This document shows positions 26,980 through 59,962 of a DNA stretch of 64,000 nucleotides, piece by piece. This stretch comes from an uncultured Acidobacteriota bacterium (GTDB lineage Bacteria; Acidobacteriota; Terriglobia; Acidiferrales; UBA7541): contig CAWAEM010000004.1 in assembly GCA_963780935.1 (NCBI GenBank), positions 816,402-880,401 of the forward strand, written 5' to 3'. Made by a program: the position numbers and the translations under genes. The notes under the pieces were generated by a model. It saw nothing but the letters and a program-made list of their open reading frames with translations, had not been told where the DNA came from and ran no database searches. Numbering within the stretch: position 1 is the stretch's first letter; the number at the start of each line of letters is the position of its first letter.

Positions 26980-27476
26980 GTACGTCCGCCATCGCCAGCT
27001 CGCGACCCAAACAGCACATCGATAATCAACAGCGCGGCCCCAATCGCGATCGCCGAATCCGCAACATTAAAGGCCGGCCACCGGTACGTCCCCAGCCACA
27101 CTTCAAAAAAATCCGTCACCGCGCCGTGCACGATGCGATCCGTGACGTTTCCCGTCGCCCCGCCGAGCAGCAGCGCAATTCCTGCCGCGTTCACGCCGCC
27201 GCCGCTGCGCCCCGCCACCAGCATCCACGCCAGAATCGCGATCACCGCCGCCGAACCCACGATCAACGCCACGCGCGTCCACGCCGACGCCGAATCCGCC
27301 ATGATTCCAAACGCAATTCCCGGATTTCTGCTGTGCACTAAATAAATAAAATTGTGCATCACTTCGCAGCGCCAGCCTTCCGGAGTCTGCGTCTCAAACC
27401 ACGCTTTCGTCGCACGATCCGCAAACACCACCGCCAGCGTCAGCCACAACCAACGCACCCGCGCCGGTACCTTCAC
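26976..27476 (-). CDS. lspA: Lipoprotein signal peptidase II
   Basis: DRATK, NPGIAFG, GGATGNVTDR, VTDF, WPAFNVADS; downstream of ileS. Confidence 0.95.
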   Translation of the reverse strand: MKVPARVRWLWLTLAVVFADRATKAWFETQTPEGWRCEVMHNFIYLVHSRNPGIAFGIMADSASAWTRVALIVGSAAVIAILAWMLVAGRSGGGVNAAGIALLLGGATGNVTDRIVHGAVTDFFEVWLGTYRWPAFNVADSAIAIGAALLIIDVLFGSRAGDGGRT

Positions 27477-51172: not shown

Positions 51173-52516
51173 TTAGATTTGTGACGACGGATGGTGCACC
51201 GCAAGGCGTGGCGCGATTTGGAATTGCAGGTTGCCGTGAGCTAGACGCAGCGCATTTTCCACTGTTCCGGGATCTTCCCCGCGCGCGAAAATGAAACCCA
51301 AATAGCTGGCGCCCTCCGGCCATGCGGCGAGATAGTCATGCGCGCGCGCGGTGATCGCAATTTGCGTAACGCCCGGCGTTGCGGCGGCTTGTTGCTCGCC
51401 GCTGACGCCTTCGAAAATGCCGCTTTGCGGAACGGGGATCATCATTACGCCGGATGATATTTGCTCCCGCGACGCATCGGCGCCCGTCAATTCCAGCGCG
51501 TGCCGCAACAACAATTCTTCGAGCCCGATTGGCGCGTTTCCGGAATTTGCAATGAAGCGCAGAGATTGCGCGCAGAGGCCGCCGATGGGCCGCGGTGCGA
51601 TTTCGATTGGCCACACCGTCGCATCGCCGGCGGATTCTTCGGCAAGATTTCCTGTTGCTGCGCTGCTGCGGTCGGCAACGCGAAATTCCGCGTGCACGGG
51701 ACCGTGCGAAAGTCCCAGCGCGGTCACTGCGGAGCGGAGCGACTTTTCAATCGCCGCGATTTCTGGCAGCGGCAAGCGGCTCGGCGTGACATAGATGGTT
51801 TCCTCGAAGTACGGACCCTCGAGGGGATCGGGCTTGTCAAAAATCGCGAGAATGCGTAGATCTCCTGCGGTCATCAACGCTTCGACCGCGACTTCCCTGC
51901 CGGCAAGATAACCTTCGACGATCATTTCGCCGAGCCGCGGCTCGCGCGTGGCCTGAATTTCCGGCGAACGCAACAGCCTGCGGATTCGCATCGCCGCATC
52001 GACAAATTGCTCGCGATTATCGGCGCGAATGACGCCTTGGCTGGCAGAAAGCGCCAGCGGCTTCAGCACGCACGGATACGGAATCCCCAGCAGCGCGGGC
52101 TCTGGAACGGGATCGAGCGGAATCGCGCGAAACCACGGCACCGGCAATCCGGCTTCGCCCAACACTTCGCGAGTGCGCAGCTTGCTGCGGCAAGCTTCCA
52201 CCGCGGCGGGATGGTGAAAGGCGATGCCCAGCGAGCGGGCTGCAAAAGCCGCGGCATGCGCCGGGCGGTCACCGAGCGCGATAATTCCGTCGATTTGCAG
52301 AGGACGGGATTTCTCGATAGCGGTTTGCGCGGCTTCGCCGGGCGACTCGAAGTGCACCGCTATGGCACGGTCTTCCCATGGATCGTCCAATTGGTGGCAG
52401 CGATCCGTGACGTACACGAGCTCTACATGCAATTTTTTCGCGGCTTCCTTAAAGCTGCGCGTTTGATAGCCCAGCTTGGCGGCGAAGAGTAAGACGCGTT
52501 TGACGGTTCCAGACAT
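51173..52516 (-). CDS. ATP-grasp ligase (L-amino-acid-ligase-like)
   Basis: YPCVLKP...SQGV, IVEGYLAGREVAVE, HGPVHAEFR, IEIAPRPIGG. Confidence 0.88.
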   Translation of the reverse strand: MSGTVKRVLLFAAKLGYQTRSFKEAAKKLHVELVYVTDRCHQLDDPWEDRAIAVHFESPGEAAQTAIEKSRPLQIDGIIALGDRPAHAAAFAARSLGIAFHHPAAVEACRSKLRTREVLGEAGLPVPWFRAIPLDPVPEPALLGIPYPCVLKPLALSASQGVIRADNREQFVDAAMRIRRLLRSPEIQATREPRLGEMIVEGYLAGREVAVEALMTAGDLRILAIFDKPDPLEGPYFEETIYVTPSRLPLPEIAAIEKSLRSAVTALGLSHGPVHAEFRVADRSSAATGNLAEESAGDATVWPIEIAPRPIGGLCAQSLRFIANSGNAPIGLEELLLRHALELTGADASREQISSGVMMIPVPQSGIFEGVSGEQQAAATPGVTQIAITARAHDYLAAWPEGASYLGFIFARGEDPGTVENALRLAHGNLQFQIAPRLAVHHPSSQI

Positions 52517-52550
52517 GATTGAGAATTTGCTTGAGATTCCCTAAACGACC

Positions 52551-54059
52551 CTAAACAAATTGATCCGCGGAGAGCGCTGGATGTTTCACGGGAGTTAATT
52601 TTATCGCCGGCGGCGCGACCGGAAGCACGGACGTACCGGCAATGGAAACGAACTGCGCGGGCGTAGGCTCAGCGCAGCAATACCAGGGCTCGCTCAGAAA
52701 CGGCACCGGCGTCGCAGGCGATTGCCGTGTCAGCTGCGGAGGTTGTAGCGCCGAAGCTGCGTGGGCGGCTTGCCAGATGCTTTCAAATGCCGCAAAACGC
52801 GTGAGTTTTTCCGCGTCGGTTTGCGCCGCGATCTCCTGAATCTTCACGCTTAGTGCATCGACGCGCAAATCGCTGTGCTGCCAGGGGAACACCAGTGATT
52901 TCGCATCGAAAGGACCAACTGTATTGCGGATTTCCGGCAATTCCAAAAGGCGCGAACCCGCTGGGATGAGCAAGCGGATACCGAATTGGATAGGCGCTAC
53001 ATTTTCGATGAGATTTTCGTCGCGTATCACGCGCAAGAGATCGCGAAAGTCTTCGAGCGAGCTCCACGGAGCGAACGGGACAAATGTCGGATGAAGCGTC
53101 ATCCCCAGTTTGCGAAAGTTTTCCACCACCGCGAGAAAATCCTGACGCGTGTGACCCTTGTCGAGAATTTGCAGCGCGGAGTCGTTCACAGATTCCACCG
53201 CACTGATCACGAAAAGGCAGCCGGTGTCGCGCAGCGCAGGTAAGTGTTGCGAATATTTCATCAAATGTTCGATCTTAATGGTGACGTCGTAGGTGATCGC
53301 GGCAAATTCTTCGTGAAACAATTTGATAATTTCCAGCGCATGCCCGATGCCGTTAAAAAAATCAGGATCGCCAAACGATATATGCTGCGCCCCGGCGGCG
53401 ACTTGGCGGCGGATATCCTCGAGCACCACTTCACGCTGCACGATGCGAAAAACCCCTTTATAGACCGGTACAATCGGGCAGTGGCGGCAGAGATGCTTGC
53501 AGCCGCGGCTGGCTTCCGTCGAGCCCACCACACGATAACCAGCGCCAGGGATCATGAGATGCGCGTATGTTTCGATGGGCGGGAGGCCGCTGCGATCCGG
53601 CACCTCGAACGCTAGCCGCTCTAAAGAAATCAGTGGCTGGCGCTGCAACGAATCGGGAACCTGCGCGAAGGCTGCTCCATCACCGGAGCGGCGCGCCGAC
53701 AACTCGTCTGCGAGATTTGTGAGACCAGCCTCAAATTCGCCGCCGAGCAACGTTTGTACACCCAGCTCTTTCAAGTATTCGATGTTCATGGGCGCGTACA
53801 AGCCGTAACAACAAAGGTGCGCATGAGGACTTCGCCGGCTTAATTCGGGAATAAGTTGCGCCGCGATCCGCGTGGCGGTATGCATCGGCAAGTAGATGGC
53901 GATGAGTTCAGCGCGAGCGATCGCGCCCTCGTCGAGTGGCTGGCGCGTCAAGTCGAGGCAAGTGACCTGGTGACCTCGCTTGCGAAGCCACGCCGCGGGC
54001 GACACAAGACCAAACGGCTGACGCCCCAATTCGTAGGTAGAAATCAGAACGATGTTCAT
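52551..54059 (-). CDS. B12-binding-type radical SAM protein with C-terminal CCAEP motif
   Basis: N-terminal cobalamin-binding-like domain ([12 protein letters not shown]); [10 protein letters not shown] (CxxxCxxC); FGDPDFF; PWYCCAEP at 52665-52679; start at ATG 54059. Confidence 0.88.
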
Positions 54060-54197
54060 AGCGCAAAGCACCACAAGCCCGCGACATTTGCCGCGCGCAT
54101 CTTTGAGGCAAGGCTGCTACCAGGACAGTATAGCCGTCCGCGGGCCGCCGCGAATTCGGTTATCATAGAGCCACGATTTCTTGAAAGGACGGCTGGA

Positions 54198-56930: not shown

Positions 56931-58409
56931 CTAAATGCGGCCCTGGCGTTTTTGCGCGAGGACCAAGCCGCGCGGTGTCGGTAGCAGCAGTACCGAGAGC
57001 AGGCCTTCCTGCTCCATCTTTAGTGCGGCGGCACGGACGGTATTCATCGATGAGCTGGCGTCGTGCATGACGATGATGCCAAAGGGGTTGATTTGCGGCA
57101 GGAAGCGCCGCACTTCCTGCTCGCGAATGGATGTTTCGCTGTCGCAAAATAGAAAATCGATGCGCCCAGAGACCGTCATCTCGAGGCTCGATTCGTTGCG
57201 GGCCTCGATCCACAGCGCTAGCTCCGATGCTTGAAAGCGTTCGCGTGCCGCAGCAAACACTTTTGCGTCATATTCGCAGGTGATAATTTTTCCTACGCCA
57301 TTTTCTCTCAGCCCGTCCGCGATGCGCAGCGTGCTGATACCGGAAAACGTGCCTGTTTCAACCACCAGTTCCGGCTTGAGCGTGATGACCAGCGCTTTCA
57401 AAAAATCCAGTACTTCTACTTCCGCGGTCATGGAATCGTACATGTGCCACCGTCCGGGATGCGGGCATTCGGGAGTTGCTTTGTGATATTCCGGCTGCAA
57501 AACGTCGCCGCGGGAATGGATGTGTTCTACGATGCGGTGTTCTTGCTTAAGCGCGTGGAATTGGCTTTTAAGACGCCAAAGAAGCACCGCGCCAACCAGG
57601 ATGGAAAGCAGGCTAGCGGCTTGCGCGTTACTCAGTCCGAAAAAGGAACGCGGATTGATGCGTAAAAACTCAACGAAAAAGCGCGCGAGTCCGGTGAGAA
57701 TCAAATAATTGCAGAAAATTTCGCCTTTGGCCTTCGGACCGCGCAAAGTCTTGCTTCCCATATGCCACAAGAATGCTGCGATGGCGATCCAGACGAAAAA
57801 CTCGTAAATCGGCGTGGGATGCACGGCGCAATTTGCCGGCCAGCCCCACTGCACGCAAGTTTCCGTGGTGGGCACAACGCCATTGGGAAAACTCATCCCC
57901 CACGGCAAATTTGTGGGGCGCCCGTAGTCGCCGTCGCCCGAGAGCAAGCAGCCGATACGCCCGATTGCGTAACCGACAGCGGCAGCCGGCGCGCAGATGT
58001 CGAAAAATTCCAGGAGCGGAACCTTGTAGTAGCGCGCGAGCAACACCAGCGCCAGAAAGCCGCCGATGAAGCCGCCGAACCAGGCGAAGCCGTAGCGCGT
58101 GAGCAGCATGGGCTTGGGATCCGCGAAGAATTCGCGCGGTGTTTCGAGCACGTGGTAGAAACGCGCACCCACCAACCCCGCGATTCCCGCGATGGTGACA
58201 ATCAGAAAACCTTCGTCTCGCGGCGGAGGCTCGAGTTGCGTGCTGGTTGATTTCCCCGATTTTTTCGATTTCTTTGGCGGTCGTACCGGGAAATTTCCGC
58301 GACGATTGATGTCGCTCTGCAGAATGTAGCCCGCGACCAGCACAGCCGTAGCCACCATTAATCCAAATGTGGGAATGGTCAGCGGGCCAAGATGCAGAAA
58401 GGGAATCAT
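56931..58409 (-). CDS. lgt: Lgt-family prolipoprotein diacylglyceryl transferase fused to a class I SAM (O-)methyltransferase
   Basis: N-terminal ~278 aa: GFAWFGG, IGRIGC, PWGMSFP, HPTPIYE, ARFFVEFLR; C-terminal ~190 aa: VVETGTFSGIST, ITCEYD, DFLFCDS, IVMHD; one open frame. Confidence 0.85.
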   Translation of the reverse strand: MIPFLHLGPLTIPTFGLMVATAVLVAGYILQSDINRRGNFPVRPPKKSKKSGKSTSTQLEPPPRDEGFLIVTIAGIAGLVGARFYHVLETPREFFADPKPMLLTRYGFAWFGGFIGGFLALVLLARYYKVPLLEFFDICAPAAAVGYAIGRIGCLLSGDGDYGRPTNLPWGMSFPNGVVPTTETCVQWGWPANCAVHPTPIYEFFVWIAIAAFLWHMGSKTLRGPKAKGEIFCNYLILTGLARFFVEFLRINPRSFFGLSNAQAASLLSILVGAVLLWRLKSQFHALKQEHRIVEHIHSRGDVLQPEYHKATPECPHPGRWHMYDSMTAEVEVLDFLKALVITLKPELVVETGTFSGISTLRIADGLRENGVGKIITCEYDAKVFAAARERFQASELALWIEARNESSLEMTVSGRIDFLFCDSETSIREQEVRRFLPQINPFGIIVMHDASSSMNTVRAAALKMEQEGLLSVLLLPTPRGLVLAQKRQGRI

Positions 58410-58627
58410 GAACAGGATTGAACCTAGGAAGTATACATGAAGGTTTCGTCCAACTCCGGCGCACGCGGAGCGCGGCCGGGGCGAAGCGAACGTACTAGAA
58501 CCGCCCCCCCCGGATGTTAACCGAGCGCCAGCCTTCTTGTAACAAAACAGCAACAATGCACGATTAGTTTGTAACCGGTCGCGGCAGCGTCCCCGCTGCA
58601 GTTCCGACACTCTTCATTTCCAAAAGG

Positions 58628-59962
58628 ATGGTCATGGCAATGATAAAAAAGGCCGCAGTTTTGGGTCTATTCGCGGCGGCACTGGCGCTCTCCGGCGCGG
58701 TACGCGCGCAAGAAGGCGCTGTCCCGAAAGGCGTTCCGCACCTGGACCACGTCTTCGTGATCATGATGGAGAATCACGGTTTCCATCAAATTCTTAACAA
58801 TCCCGATGCACCCTTCATCAACGAATTGGCAAATTCCGCAAACCTGGCGACCAATTATTTTGCCGTAGGCCATCCGAGCTCAACCAACTACTTGGAAACG
58901 GTAGGCGGATCGAATTTCGGGGTACGTTCCGACAACTATCCGGATTGGCATGATGCGAACTGCGTACCGAATTTAATCAGTGGATTCACGACCACCGATA
59001 ATCCTTCCAGTCCGCCCGTCTGCCCCATCGCCGGAAGCGGCGCGGACGCAGCCACGCCCGCGATTGATTGCACGAATGAAGTGCAGACCACGCCCCCGAA
59101 CTGTTACGACGACCTCGACGGCACGCTCTCCATCGCCTCCGCGCCGAAGACCGTCGGCAAATCGATTGCCGATCAACTGGCGGAGCGCGGCCGCGGCTGG
59201 CGAAGCTATCAGGAAAGCCTGCCTCCGGGCGGCGCGGATACAGTAAACATCAGCGACGGATTCTTCACGAACAACACGGATTTTACGTCGTACCTGCCCG
59301 GTTTCGCGTCATGGAGCATTCAGAACGTCACGATTCCCGCCGTACAGAACCAAACACAGGCGCAGAACGACATCGTCTATCTGTACGCGGTGAAGCACAA
59401 CCCCTTTGCCTACTTCAAGAGCGTGCAGGAAGACACCATTCCGGGCGGAGGCCTGCGCAATGTACGTGGATTTGACGGTCCAGAAGGCTTGTATGCCGAA
59501 TTAGCGTCGGGCGATGTACCGGCATTTTCGTTTATCGCGCCGAATCAGTGCAACGACCAGCACGGACGCGGCAATGCGGGCCCGTTCTGCAACTTCGATG
59601 CATCCGACAACGGCACGCAATCGGGGCTTAACGGGACGGAGATCTACCGCGGAGACGTAACGGTGCAGACGATCGTGAAAGCCATCAAAAAATCCCCGGC
59701 GTGGCGCGAAGGCAACAACGCACTCGTCGTCATGTGGGACGAAAACGATTACACCGCCACGCCAAACCAGGTCATGGTGATCGTGGACAAGAACTACGGC
59801 GACAAACACGTAAAGAGCAGCACCTTCTACACGCACTTCTCGCTGCTGCGCACCATCGAAGGCGGTCTCGGATTGCCGTGCTTGAACCATGCTTGCGATG
59901 CGAGCACCAGCACCATGACGGATCTGTTCCACCGTGGCGATGGAGACGGCGACGATAAGTAA
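58628..59962 (+). CDS. Secreted phosphoesterase (phospholipase C / acid phosphatase family)
   Basis: Signal peptide; DHVFVIMMENH, HPSSTNY, YAVKHNPF, PNQCNDQH, MWDE, YTHFSLLRTIE. Confidence 0.88.
   Translation: MVMAMIKKAAVLGLFAAALALSGAVRAQEGAVPKGVPHLDHVFVIMMENHGFHQILNNPDAPFINELANSANLATNYFAVGHPSSTNYLETVGGSNFGVRSDNYPDWHDANCVPNLISGFTTTDNPSSPPVCPIAGSGADAATPAIDCTNEVQTTPPNCYDDLDGTLSIASAPKTVGKSIADQLAERGRGWRSYQESLPPGGADTVNISDGFFTNNTDFTSYLPGFASWSIQNVTIPAVQNQTQAQNDIVYLYAVKHNPFAYFKSVQEDTIPGGGLRNVRGFDGPEGLYAELASGDVPAFSFIAPNQCNDQHGRGNAGPFCNFDASDNGTQSGLNGTEIYRGDVTVQTIVKAIKKSPAWREGNNALVVMWDENDYTATPNQVMVIVDKNYGDKHVKSSTFYTHFSLLRTIEGGLGLPCLNHACDASTSTMTDLFHRGDGDGDDK

Follow-up and report, generated by a model that had tools for sequence, protein, structure and literature searches.

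The window analysed here is a 64,000-nucleotide stretch of contig CAWAEM010000004.1 (assembly GCA_963780935.1, positions 816,402 to 880,401), from an uncultured bacterium of the Acidobacteriota. The element of interest is one open reading frame (ORF) on the minus strand (56931..58409; ATG at 58409, stop codon at 56933-56931). It encodes a 492-amino acid protein in which a prolipoprotein diacylglyceryl transferase (Lgt) is joined to an S-adenosylmethionine (SAM)-dependent methyltransferase. The frame is also open upstream, where a GTG at 58610 would give a 559-amino acid version. The ATG start is favoured because homologues keep the N-terminal sequence MIPxLHxGPL, as seen in sequence comparison. 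The first-pass annotation of this DNA had described one 492-amino acid ORF joining an Lgt-like, multi-transmembrane part to a methyltransferase, and this is borne out by the ORF and the Pfam matches. LGT (PF01790) matches residues 5-278 (E 8e-49, 166.6 bits against a cut-off of 24.9; profile positions 4-239 of 240), Methyltransf_24 (PF13578) residues 350-450 (46.5 bits against 26.3) and Methyltransf_3 (PF01596) residues 323-427 (30.2 bits against 22). The committed and usually essential step by which bacteria make lipoproteins is catalyzed by Lgt, a current antibiotic target. To our knowledge, it has been regarded as a single-domain enzyme. The first-pass annotation knew of no characterised Lgt-methyltransferase fusion, and our literature search found no description of one either. 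A phylum-wide survey of Lgt treats paralogues and residue variants, and a word search of it found no mention of fusions (PMC13251419).

The Lgt domain comprises residues 1-286 (57552..58409, minus strand, as are all features of the ORF), with an arm-1 hairpin, seven transmembrane (TM) helices and a periplasmic head, as delimited by PF01790, an AlphaFold2 (AF2) model and Foldseek. A variable, lysine- and proline-rich cytoplasmic loop connects TM1 and TM2 (residues 38-65, 58215..58298) and holds 7 Lys/Arg in 28 residues. The length of this loop differs between homologues, the predicted local distance difference test (pLDDT) is below 50 at residues 51-62, and relatives align in two separate blocks, one to residues 1-38 and one from residue 66 onward. 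The Lgt signature motif GRIGCLLSGDGDYG lies at 57921..57962 and the TM6 motif ARFFVEFLR at 57660..57686. A juxtamembrane linker of 36 residues (287-322, 57444..57551) belongs to the methyltransferase module, as does the signature ECPHPGRWHMYD (residues 314-325, 57435..57470; consensus ECPxPxRWxMxD), which precedes the core. The core itself is a class I SAM methyltransferase (residues 323-492, 56934..57443; PF13578, PF01596) with a cation-dependent O-methyltransferase-like fold. It contains the SAM-binding motif I, VETGTFSG (57339..57362), the sequence DFLFCDS (57138..57158) and the pair H449-D450 (57060..57065). All of the motifs cited in the earlier annotation were found, namely the linker KSQFHALKQEHRIVEHIHSRGDVLQPEYH, then TPECPHPGRWHMYDSMTAE, ETGTFSG, CEYD, DFLFCDS and MHD.

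The fusion is genuine, conserved and under selection. Four soil-metagenome runs, each from a different study, yielded Logan contigs that span its junction (approximately 57444-57551), which had earlier been singled out for a read check, with no indels (57281-57729, without any difference; 57420-57818; 57053-57951; 57071-57638). A search among 5.8 billion proteins found more than 100 protein clusters with the identical two-domain architecture at 70-97% identity, the named members of which are ‘Candidatus Acidoferrum/Acidiferrum’. At least 186 fused sequences (58-97% identity; Acidoferrum/Acidoferrales) retain the catalytic residues of both halves, so the architecture is not confined to this assembly. 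The residues that are 100% conserved in 186 fused sequences include R143, R239, E243, R246, E202, D129, G142 and G145 of Lgt (E. coli numbering), together with the SAM motifs, D423 and H449 of the methyltransferase. AF2 models both domains confidently (pLDDT 84.3, predicted TM-score 0.76).

The Lgt half resembles the E. coli enzyme (PDB 5AZB/5AZC) in its seven-TM fold, arm, periplasmic head, N-out/C-in topology, signature glycines and the residues R143, R239, E243, R246, E202 and D129. Foldseek matches the fusion to 5azb with an E of 2.3e-8 and a TM-score of 0.67 on the target, and the AF2 model has the N-terminal hairpin, seven long TM helices and a head region. The two proteins are approximately 26% identical, and the fusion differs in adding a 206-residue C-terminal cytoplasmic methyltransferase module and the long basic TM1-TM2 loop. 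In the alignment, R143, G142, G145, D129, H196, E202, R239, E243 and R246 are retained, with R143 lying in the signature motif and the last three in the TM6 motif, where they are present in 186/186 fused sequences. Five positions are replaced: Y26 by F, H103 by F, Y235 by T and, within the signature motif, N146 by C and E151 by D.

Mao et al. reported that R143, R239, Y26 and H103 are required in E. coli, and that the Y26F variant is inactive (PMC4728403). The proposed roles of R143 and R239 are head-group binding and gating. Each of Y26, H103 and N146 is essential in that enzyme (PMC4728403, PMC13251419). It has been noted by Legood et al. that distant Lgts carry natural variants at some of these positions, with H103 replaced by Y, W or F, N146 by C and E151 by C or D (PMC13251419). 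In 36 unfused relatives, C146 and D151 are nearly invariant, which makes this a regular Lgt subtype. Across the 186 fused sequences, all of the aligned positions discussed here are invariant.

There are three PF01790 homologues in the genome, of which the fused one is the best match (166 bits, the others scoring 94 and 68 bits); the other two depart more at E243 and G142 in the alignment. The fused Lgt half is orthologous (59-72% identity) and syntenic with the unfused lgt of sister species. The gene for the next enzyme of the lipoprotein pathway, lspA (Peptidase_A8, 126 bits), lies on the minus strand of the window at 27009-27440, approximately 30 kb from the fused lgt. Judged from these comparisons, the Lgt half is most likely the main prolipoprotein diacylglyceryl transferase of the organism.

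The second Lgt paralogue (288 amino acids; G000:C6:760658-761347, L002 1492-2358 +) has a GRIGC motif, keeps R239 and has D in place of E243. It sits directly upstream of a radical SAM gene (L002 2886-3689) with a Zn_ribbon_HMPTM domain. This domain, named after the pterin methyltransferase HMPTM, is also known from archaeal tetraether (GDGT/MAS) synthases, and the two genes may form a membrane-spanning-lipid gene pair. The third and most divergent paralogue (273 amino acids; G000:C4:400103-400777, L003 1444-2265 -) has ARLGC, G in place of E243 and His at the Y26 position, and adjoins a tyrosinase-like gene. In three Lgt homologues of the N146C subtype (P0204, P0220 and P0256), the C-terminus bears other putative domains, namely Redoxin/AhpC-TSA, a periplasmic-binding domain and TPR. 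It appears that the C-terminus of Lgt tolerates passengers, as homologues of the same subtype are fused to such unrelated domains.

For the methyltransferase half, which both fold and profile place nearest to the cation-dependent class I O-methyltransferases, the best Foldseek match is 8c9v (TM-score 0.77 on the target), followed by PaMTH1, Rv0187, SynOMT, SafC and TrmR. The half shares with the cation-dependent O-methyltransferases (PF01596; Desulfuromonas acetoxidans 8C9V, SynOMT 3CBG, SafC 5LOG, PaMTH1 4YMG, TrmR 5ZW3) the Rossmann SAM fold, motif I, an acidic residue after beta-2 and the first metal-binding Asp, with which D423 of DFLFCDS aligns. The ‘FLDSE’ strand is common to 8C9V and the fusion. 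Among the 186 fused sequences E351, G353 and G357 of motif I are invariant, as are E379 and D381. The differences concern the extra ECPxPxRWxMxD, the membrane tether (the known enzymes are soluble) and the metal site. H449-D450 occupies the Asp-Asn metal-ligand site, the PDB profile comparison setting ...VVDNA of 8c9v against ...LLHDAS of the fusion, and the position at +3 from D423 is variable and is never the catalytic Lys. Of the canonical Asp / Asp-Asn triad with its catalytic Lys, the protein therefore has D423 and carries His449-Asp450 instead of the pair. The methyltransferase may work like the cation-dependent enzymes, although it is not a canonical member of that group. As both the catalytic Lys and the Asp-Asn pair are absent, its chemistry could differ from O-methylation. 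Cation-dependent O-methyltransferases chelate two adjacent (vicinal) hydroxyls.

Ahead of the core, the E, C, P, W and D of the ECPxPxRWxMxD signature are invariant, and this includes a sister clade that is fused to a GT2 glycosyltransferase. The linker forms a short helix at residues 289-299 in the AF2 model and then runs as coil. It is basic, and is also kept by two other forms of the module, one of them stand-alone and the other attached to a different membrane domain.

The topology of the protein separates its two active sites. E. coli Lgt has been shown to have an active site open towards the periplasm, and an N-terminal beta strand in the periplasmic head that is followed by the seven TMs (PMC4728403). 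The layout of the fusion in the AF2 model equals that of the E. coli enzyme. A positive-inside count gives 16 Lys/Arg on predicted cytoplasmic loops and 5 on periplasmic loops, which places the methyltransferase, C-terminal to TM7, in the cytoplasm. SAM is cytoplasmic. The two halves are thus predicted to act on opposite faces of the membrane, Lgt on the periplasmic and the methyltransferase on the cytoplasmic side.

A profile search of species-representative genomes with the methyltransferase module gave 495 relatives, and architectures were read at the best 80 loci. Lgt fusions account for 66 of these 80. Another 12 are stand-alone proteins of 213-262 amino acids with approximately 70% identity, in bins of Terriglobales, Acidobacteriaceae and Korobacter. 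Among the Terriglobales genomes with a stand-alone orthologue are assemblies of one or two contigs, and a cluster look-up found no named isolate that carries the stand-alone gene. A third form, of approximately 365 amino acids, is abundant in Acidoferrales and is referred to here as TM-MT (pseudo-Lgt-methyltransferase). It has the same module and linker as the fusion (45-57% identity), and its Lgt part consists of five TMs. This membrane domain aligns to TM3-TM7 of Lgt (hhalign, probability 96.6%, E 4.7e-10), is without R143, R239 and E243, and is predicted to be catalytically dead. In a Foldseek search with TM-MT the top 50 matches were all methyltransferases, none of them informative on the membrane domain. 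The proposed Lgt ancestry of this domain draws on the hhalign result and on two intermediate TM-MT proteins that still match PF01790. The proteins carry no other annotation than ‘class I SAM-dependent methyltransferase / predicted O-methyltransferase YrrM’.

TM-MT is encoded in a conserved envelope operon of Acidoferrales (L099 4320-12450, L100, L102 and L014), whose genes encode a small EamA pair, an AsnB-like amidotransferase, an ArnT-like PMT_2 glycosyltransferase of the GT-C type, the methyltransferase and a UDP-sulfoquinovose-synthase-like short-chain dehydrogenase/reductase (SDR). The operon continues with a divergent HpnI-like glycosyltransferase, and HpnJ or HpnA-like genes are found nearby in some genomes. 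In the genome of the fusion, the ArnT-like/HpnI-like and AsnB/SDR/EamA genes are split over two loci (L107, L108), without a methyltransferase. The sister clade mentioned above (approximately 38% identity) keeps the ECP motif and is nearly always fused to GT2. At L116 452-10556, two such GT2-methyltransferase genes stand in tandem in a glycan cluster that also encodes RgpF, an ABC transporter, a sulfotransferase and one more methyltransferase, which suggests that this cluster makes a methylated, sulfated rhamnan-type polymer. The methyltransferase is a mobile module that is separable from Lgt.

The module is present in 43 of 301 Terriglobia genomes, all of them within two families. The family of the fusion has fused or dead-Lgt forms and the second family has mostly stand-alone forms; 3 Terriglobia genomes hold two copies. 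Within the genus of the fusion, the module occurs in 17/25 genomes. Sister species have an unfused lgt at the same site, in the order permease > lgt < aconitase, and no methyltransferase stands beside these orthologues at the syntenic site. Conversely, no lgt was found within 10 kb of the methyltransferase at the 12 stand-alone loci or of the TM-MT copies. The earlier suggestion of a recent fusion of operon neighbours is supported by neither observation, and a fusion of adjacent genes was rejected. One alphaproteobacterial lgt, carried on a plasmid, did not stand in a row with a methyltransferase and pgeF.

In a tree of the Lgt domain, two unfused lineages branch first and all fused genes fall in one clade (support 98/97), which also encloses at least 3-4 unfused lineages. 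This nesting is consistent with one gain followed by several losses of the methyltransferase. The module tree groups the Lgt-fused genes in a single tight clade (100/94), with the stand-alone and several dead-Lgt lineages lying deep and unresolved. Near-identical fused genes are also seen at L076, L078 and L082, in bins labelled Methylomirabilota or Verrucomicrobiia; given their acidobacterial synteny and tree position, the contigs have probably been mis-binned.

Taken as a whole, the protein is read here as a working Lgt that keeps an independent O-methyltransferase anchored to the inner side of the membrane, a reading to which we give a probability of about one half. Residues 1-286 would be a competent Lgt of a natural N146C/E151D subtype, acting at the periplasmic leaflet. 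Residues 287-492 would be an active SAM-dependent methyltransferase with the cation-dependent O-methyltransferase fold and an altered Asp...His-Asp metal site, for which ECPxPxRWxMxD would serve as a family-specific N-terminal lid motif. This enzyme would hang off TM7 on the cytoplasmic side, with the Lgt body as a membrane tether, and possibly also a lipid-binding platform, as opposed to a chemical partner. Most likely, what it would O-methylate lies at the inner face, either within the membrane or close to it. As a best guess, the substrate would be a lipid-carried sugar, or some other glycolipid or polyol lipid. The membrane- or glycan-linked architectures of three forms of the module suggest a glycolipid or lipid-linked sugar, which is a weak step of the argument.

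A number of observations weigh against this reading. Three residues that are individually indispensable in the E. coli enzyme, Y26, H103 and N146, are replaced by F, F and C. The protein scores 93.9 bits against the TIGR00544 equivalog, below the cut-off of 118.9, and 126 against 334 for NF000778 (NCBIfam). Relatives are accordingly named ‘Lgt family protein’ by NCBI, and the database name of the fusion is only ‘prolipoprotein diacylglyceryl transferase (family protein)’. In view of the essential-residue replacements and the equivalog score, catalytic activity of the Lgt half is considered likely and no more than that. On the methyltransferase side, the COMT-type catalytic Lys and the Asp-Asn metal pair are absent. 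The dead-Lgt family has an invariant cytoplasmic loop of its own, EGRRQxQFQRPxG, and the methyltransferase is paired repeatedly with a live or dead Lgt; the Lgt fold may therefore do more than anchor.

The genomic context adds further objections. The neighbours of the fused gene (a permease, aconitase, a radical SAM gene and an ATP-grasp gene) are uninformative, as the unfused lgt shares them and they say nothing on function. Phyletic profiles indicate that the fused and stand-alone forms are not dependent on the ArnT-like GT-C or the SQD1-like SDR, the latter being present in only 2 of approximately 39 genomes with either form. A phyletic coupling to these two genes was rejected, as there is no correlation outside the TM-MT operon. 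The substrate class is argued from paralogues and this analogy is weak. The lipid or glycan substrate that had been proposed at first sight thus fits the contexts of the paralogues, whereas the phyletic profiles tie the Lgt-fused form to no pathway.

In its logic, the fusion has its nearest precedent in Ppm1 (Rv2051c) of M. tuberculosis, in which a polytopic lipoprotein-maturation enzyme likewise carries a C-terminal cytoplasmic enzyme of envelope biosynthesis, with the halves separate in relatives (PMC3460810). Ppm1 consists of Lnt and a GT2 synthase, here replaced by Lgt and a methyltransferase. The separate genes are operon neighbours in Corynebacteriales and are not neighbours here; the functional link has been demonstrated for Ppm1, whereas here the pairing is known from sequences. 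By analogy, the methyltransferase could tailor a polyprenyl-phosphate sugar or lipid-linked glycan donor at the cytoplasmic face. The donor would then be flipped and a PMT_2/ArnT-like GT-C would move the sugar to lipoproteins or envelope lipids, with the Lgt fusion co-localising the machinery. In Rv2051c, Lnt is joined to a polyprenol-phosphate-mannose synthase, and lipoprotein acylation and glycosylation are coupled in C. glutamicum (PMC3460810). The dead-Lgt paralogue directly follows the PMT_2 GT-C gene and is accompanied by an EamA pair (ArnE/F-like), the SDR and GT2/GT21 genes, and the genome of the fusion has orthologues of those operon genes and no second copy of the module. Such a coupling is nevertheless rather unlikely, as many genomes with a fused or stand-alone methyltransferase are without the SDR orthologue, GT-C genomes occur without the methyltransferase, the separate halves are never neighbours, and no direct report of lipoprotein glycosylation in Acidobacteriota was found.

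It is improbable, if conceivable, that the target is the head group of a bulk lipid. Here, a vicinal diol in the inner leaflet would be O-methylated while the Lgt fold holds the lipid, the candidates being the glycerol head group of phosphatidylglycerol (PG), which is the Lgt donor, and the polyol side chain of a bacteriohopanetetrol-type hopanoid. The closest fold is that of enzymes which chelate adjacent hydroxyls, HpnI-like, HpnJ and HpnA-like genes flank the paralogues, and the dead-Lgt domain retains its strongly conserved cytoplasmic loop. The Lgt fold does bind PG (PMC4728403), but its PG cavity opens to the periplasmic leaflet and the dead form has lost R143 and R239. The stand-alone and GT2-fused forms are without a lipid-binding domain. 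A literature search found neither an O-methylated PG nor an enzyme responsible for one, and searches on O-methylated hopanoids in Acidobacteria and on Acidoferrum biology returned nothing relevant.

The tether could instead be incidental, with the fusion neutral or serving only the localisation or dosage of a small-molecule (catechol-type) or RNA O-methyltransferase. The nearest structures are soluble catechol and flavonoid O-methyltransferases and the tRNA 5-hydroxyuridine methyltransferase TrmR, the Lgt homologues of the same subfamily are fused to Redoxin, periplasmic-binding and TPR domains, and the methyltransferase has been lost several times while Lgt was retained. Three independent membrane- or glycan-associated architectures, a juxtamembrane linker that is kept even in stand-alone forms and the strict conservation of both halves across 186 sequences render this account doubtful, to much the same degree.

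In a more elaborate scheme, the Lgt fold would have been recruited twice, once live and once as a truncated dead domain, as a membrane platform from which a new subclass of His-Asp-type O-methyltransferase receives a polyol lipid or lipid-linked sugar on the cytoplasmic side, and the live fusion would physically couple lipoprotein lipidation to the tailoring of a donor for GT-C glycosylation in the periplasm. This scheme is a long shot of similar standing. If true, the twice-recruited platform would be an acidobacterial counterpart of mycobacterial Lnt-Ppm1, and methylated glycans would be expected on lipoproteins or envelope lipids.

A direct chemical coupling within lipoprotein maturation has less in its favour. 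The first-pass annotation had considered methylation of the glycerophosphate by-product or of the lipoprotein, and the corresponding targets would be glycerol-1-phosphate, the diacylglyceryl-cysteine or the prolipoprotein. Both activities do reside on one polypeptide, conserved in hundreds of sequences, and the methyltransferase pairs with an Lgt fold in two families. Yet the Lgt site is periplasmic, while the methyltransferase and SAM are cytoplasmic. The halves also exist separately in close relatives, including unfused syntenic Lgt orthologues within the same genus, and the same methyltransferase also occurs by itself, on GT2 and on what is left of a dead Lgt. For these reasons, neither glycerol-1-phosphate nor the lipidated cysteine is a likely target of methylation, and the coupling hypothesis as a whole is given little credence.

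An assembly or annotation artefact, a lost stop codon or a decaying pseudogene can be dismissed almost entirely in view of the four gap-free contigs, the number of intact homologues with invariant catalytic residues and the confident AF2 models of both domains, even though one relative (G001, locus L113, G001:C5:100500-104500) has its fused gene split over three frames. The three-frame gene of L113 is itself either a pseudogene or the product of indel errors in a long-read assembly.

Under the preferred reading of a tethered, independent methyltransferase, the fusion represents a putatively bifunctional Lgt that selection has maintained across a clade, within an uncultured soil lineage that ranks among the most abundant. 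In the TM-MT family, a catalytically dead Lgt fold appears to have been co-opted as a membrane platform for this methyltransferase, within a glycolipid/hopanoid-type operon. The activity of an N146C/E151D/Y26F Lgt and the target of the ECPxPxRW methyltransferase subfamily become testable, as does the question of whether methylation of envelope lipids or glycans in Acidobacteriota is organised around the lipoprotein machinery.

Among the nearby genes, a signal-peptide-bearing protein of the phosphoesterase family (PF04185) is encoded divergently from the fusion on the plus strand (window 58628-59962). It was set aside as a functional clue because the adjacency is specific to this genome (0/47 related loci). 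The radical SAM gene, which has a CCAEP tail, and the ATP-grasp ligase gene lie on the minus strand (window 51173-54074), and this pair is found downstream of lgt/aconitase in 39/47 related loci.

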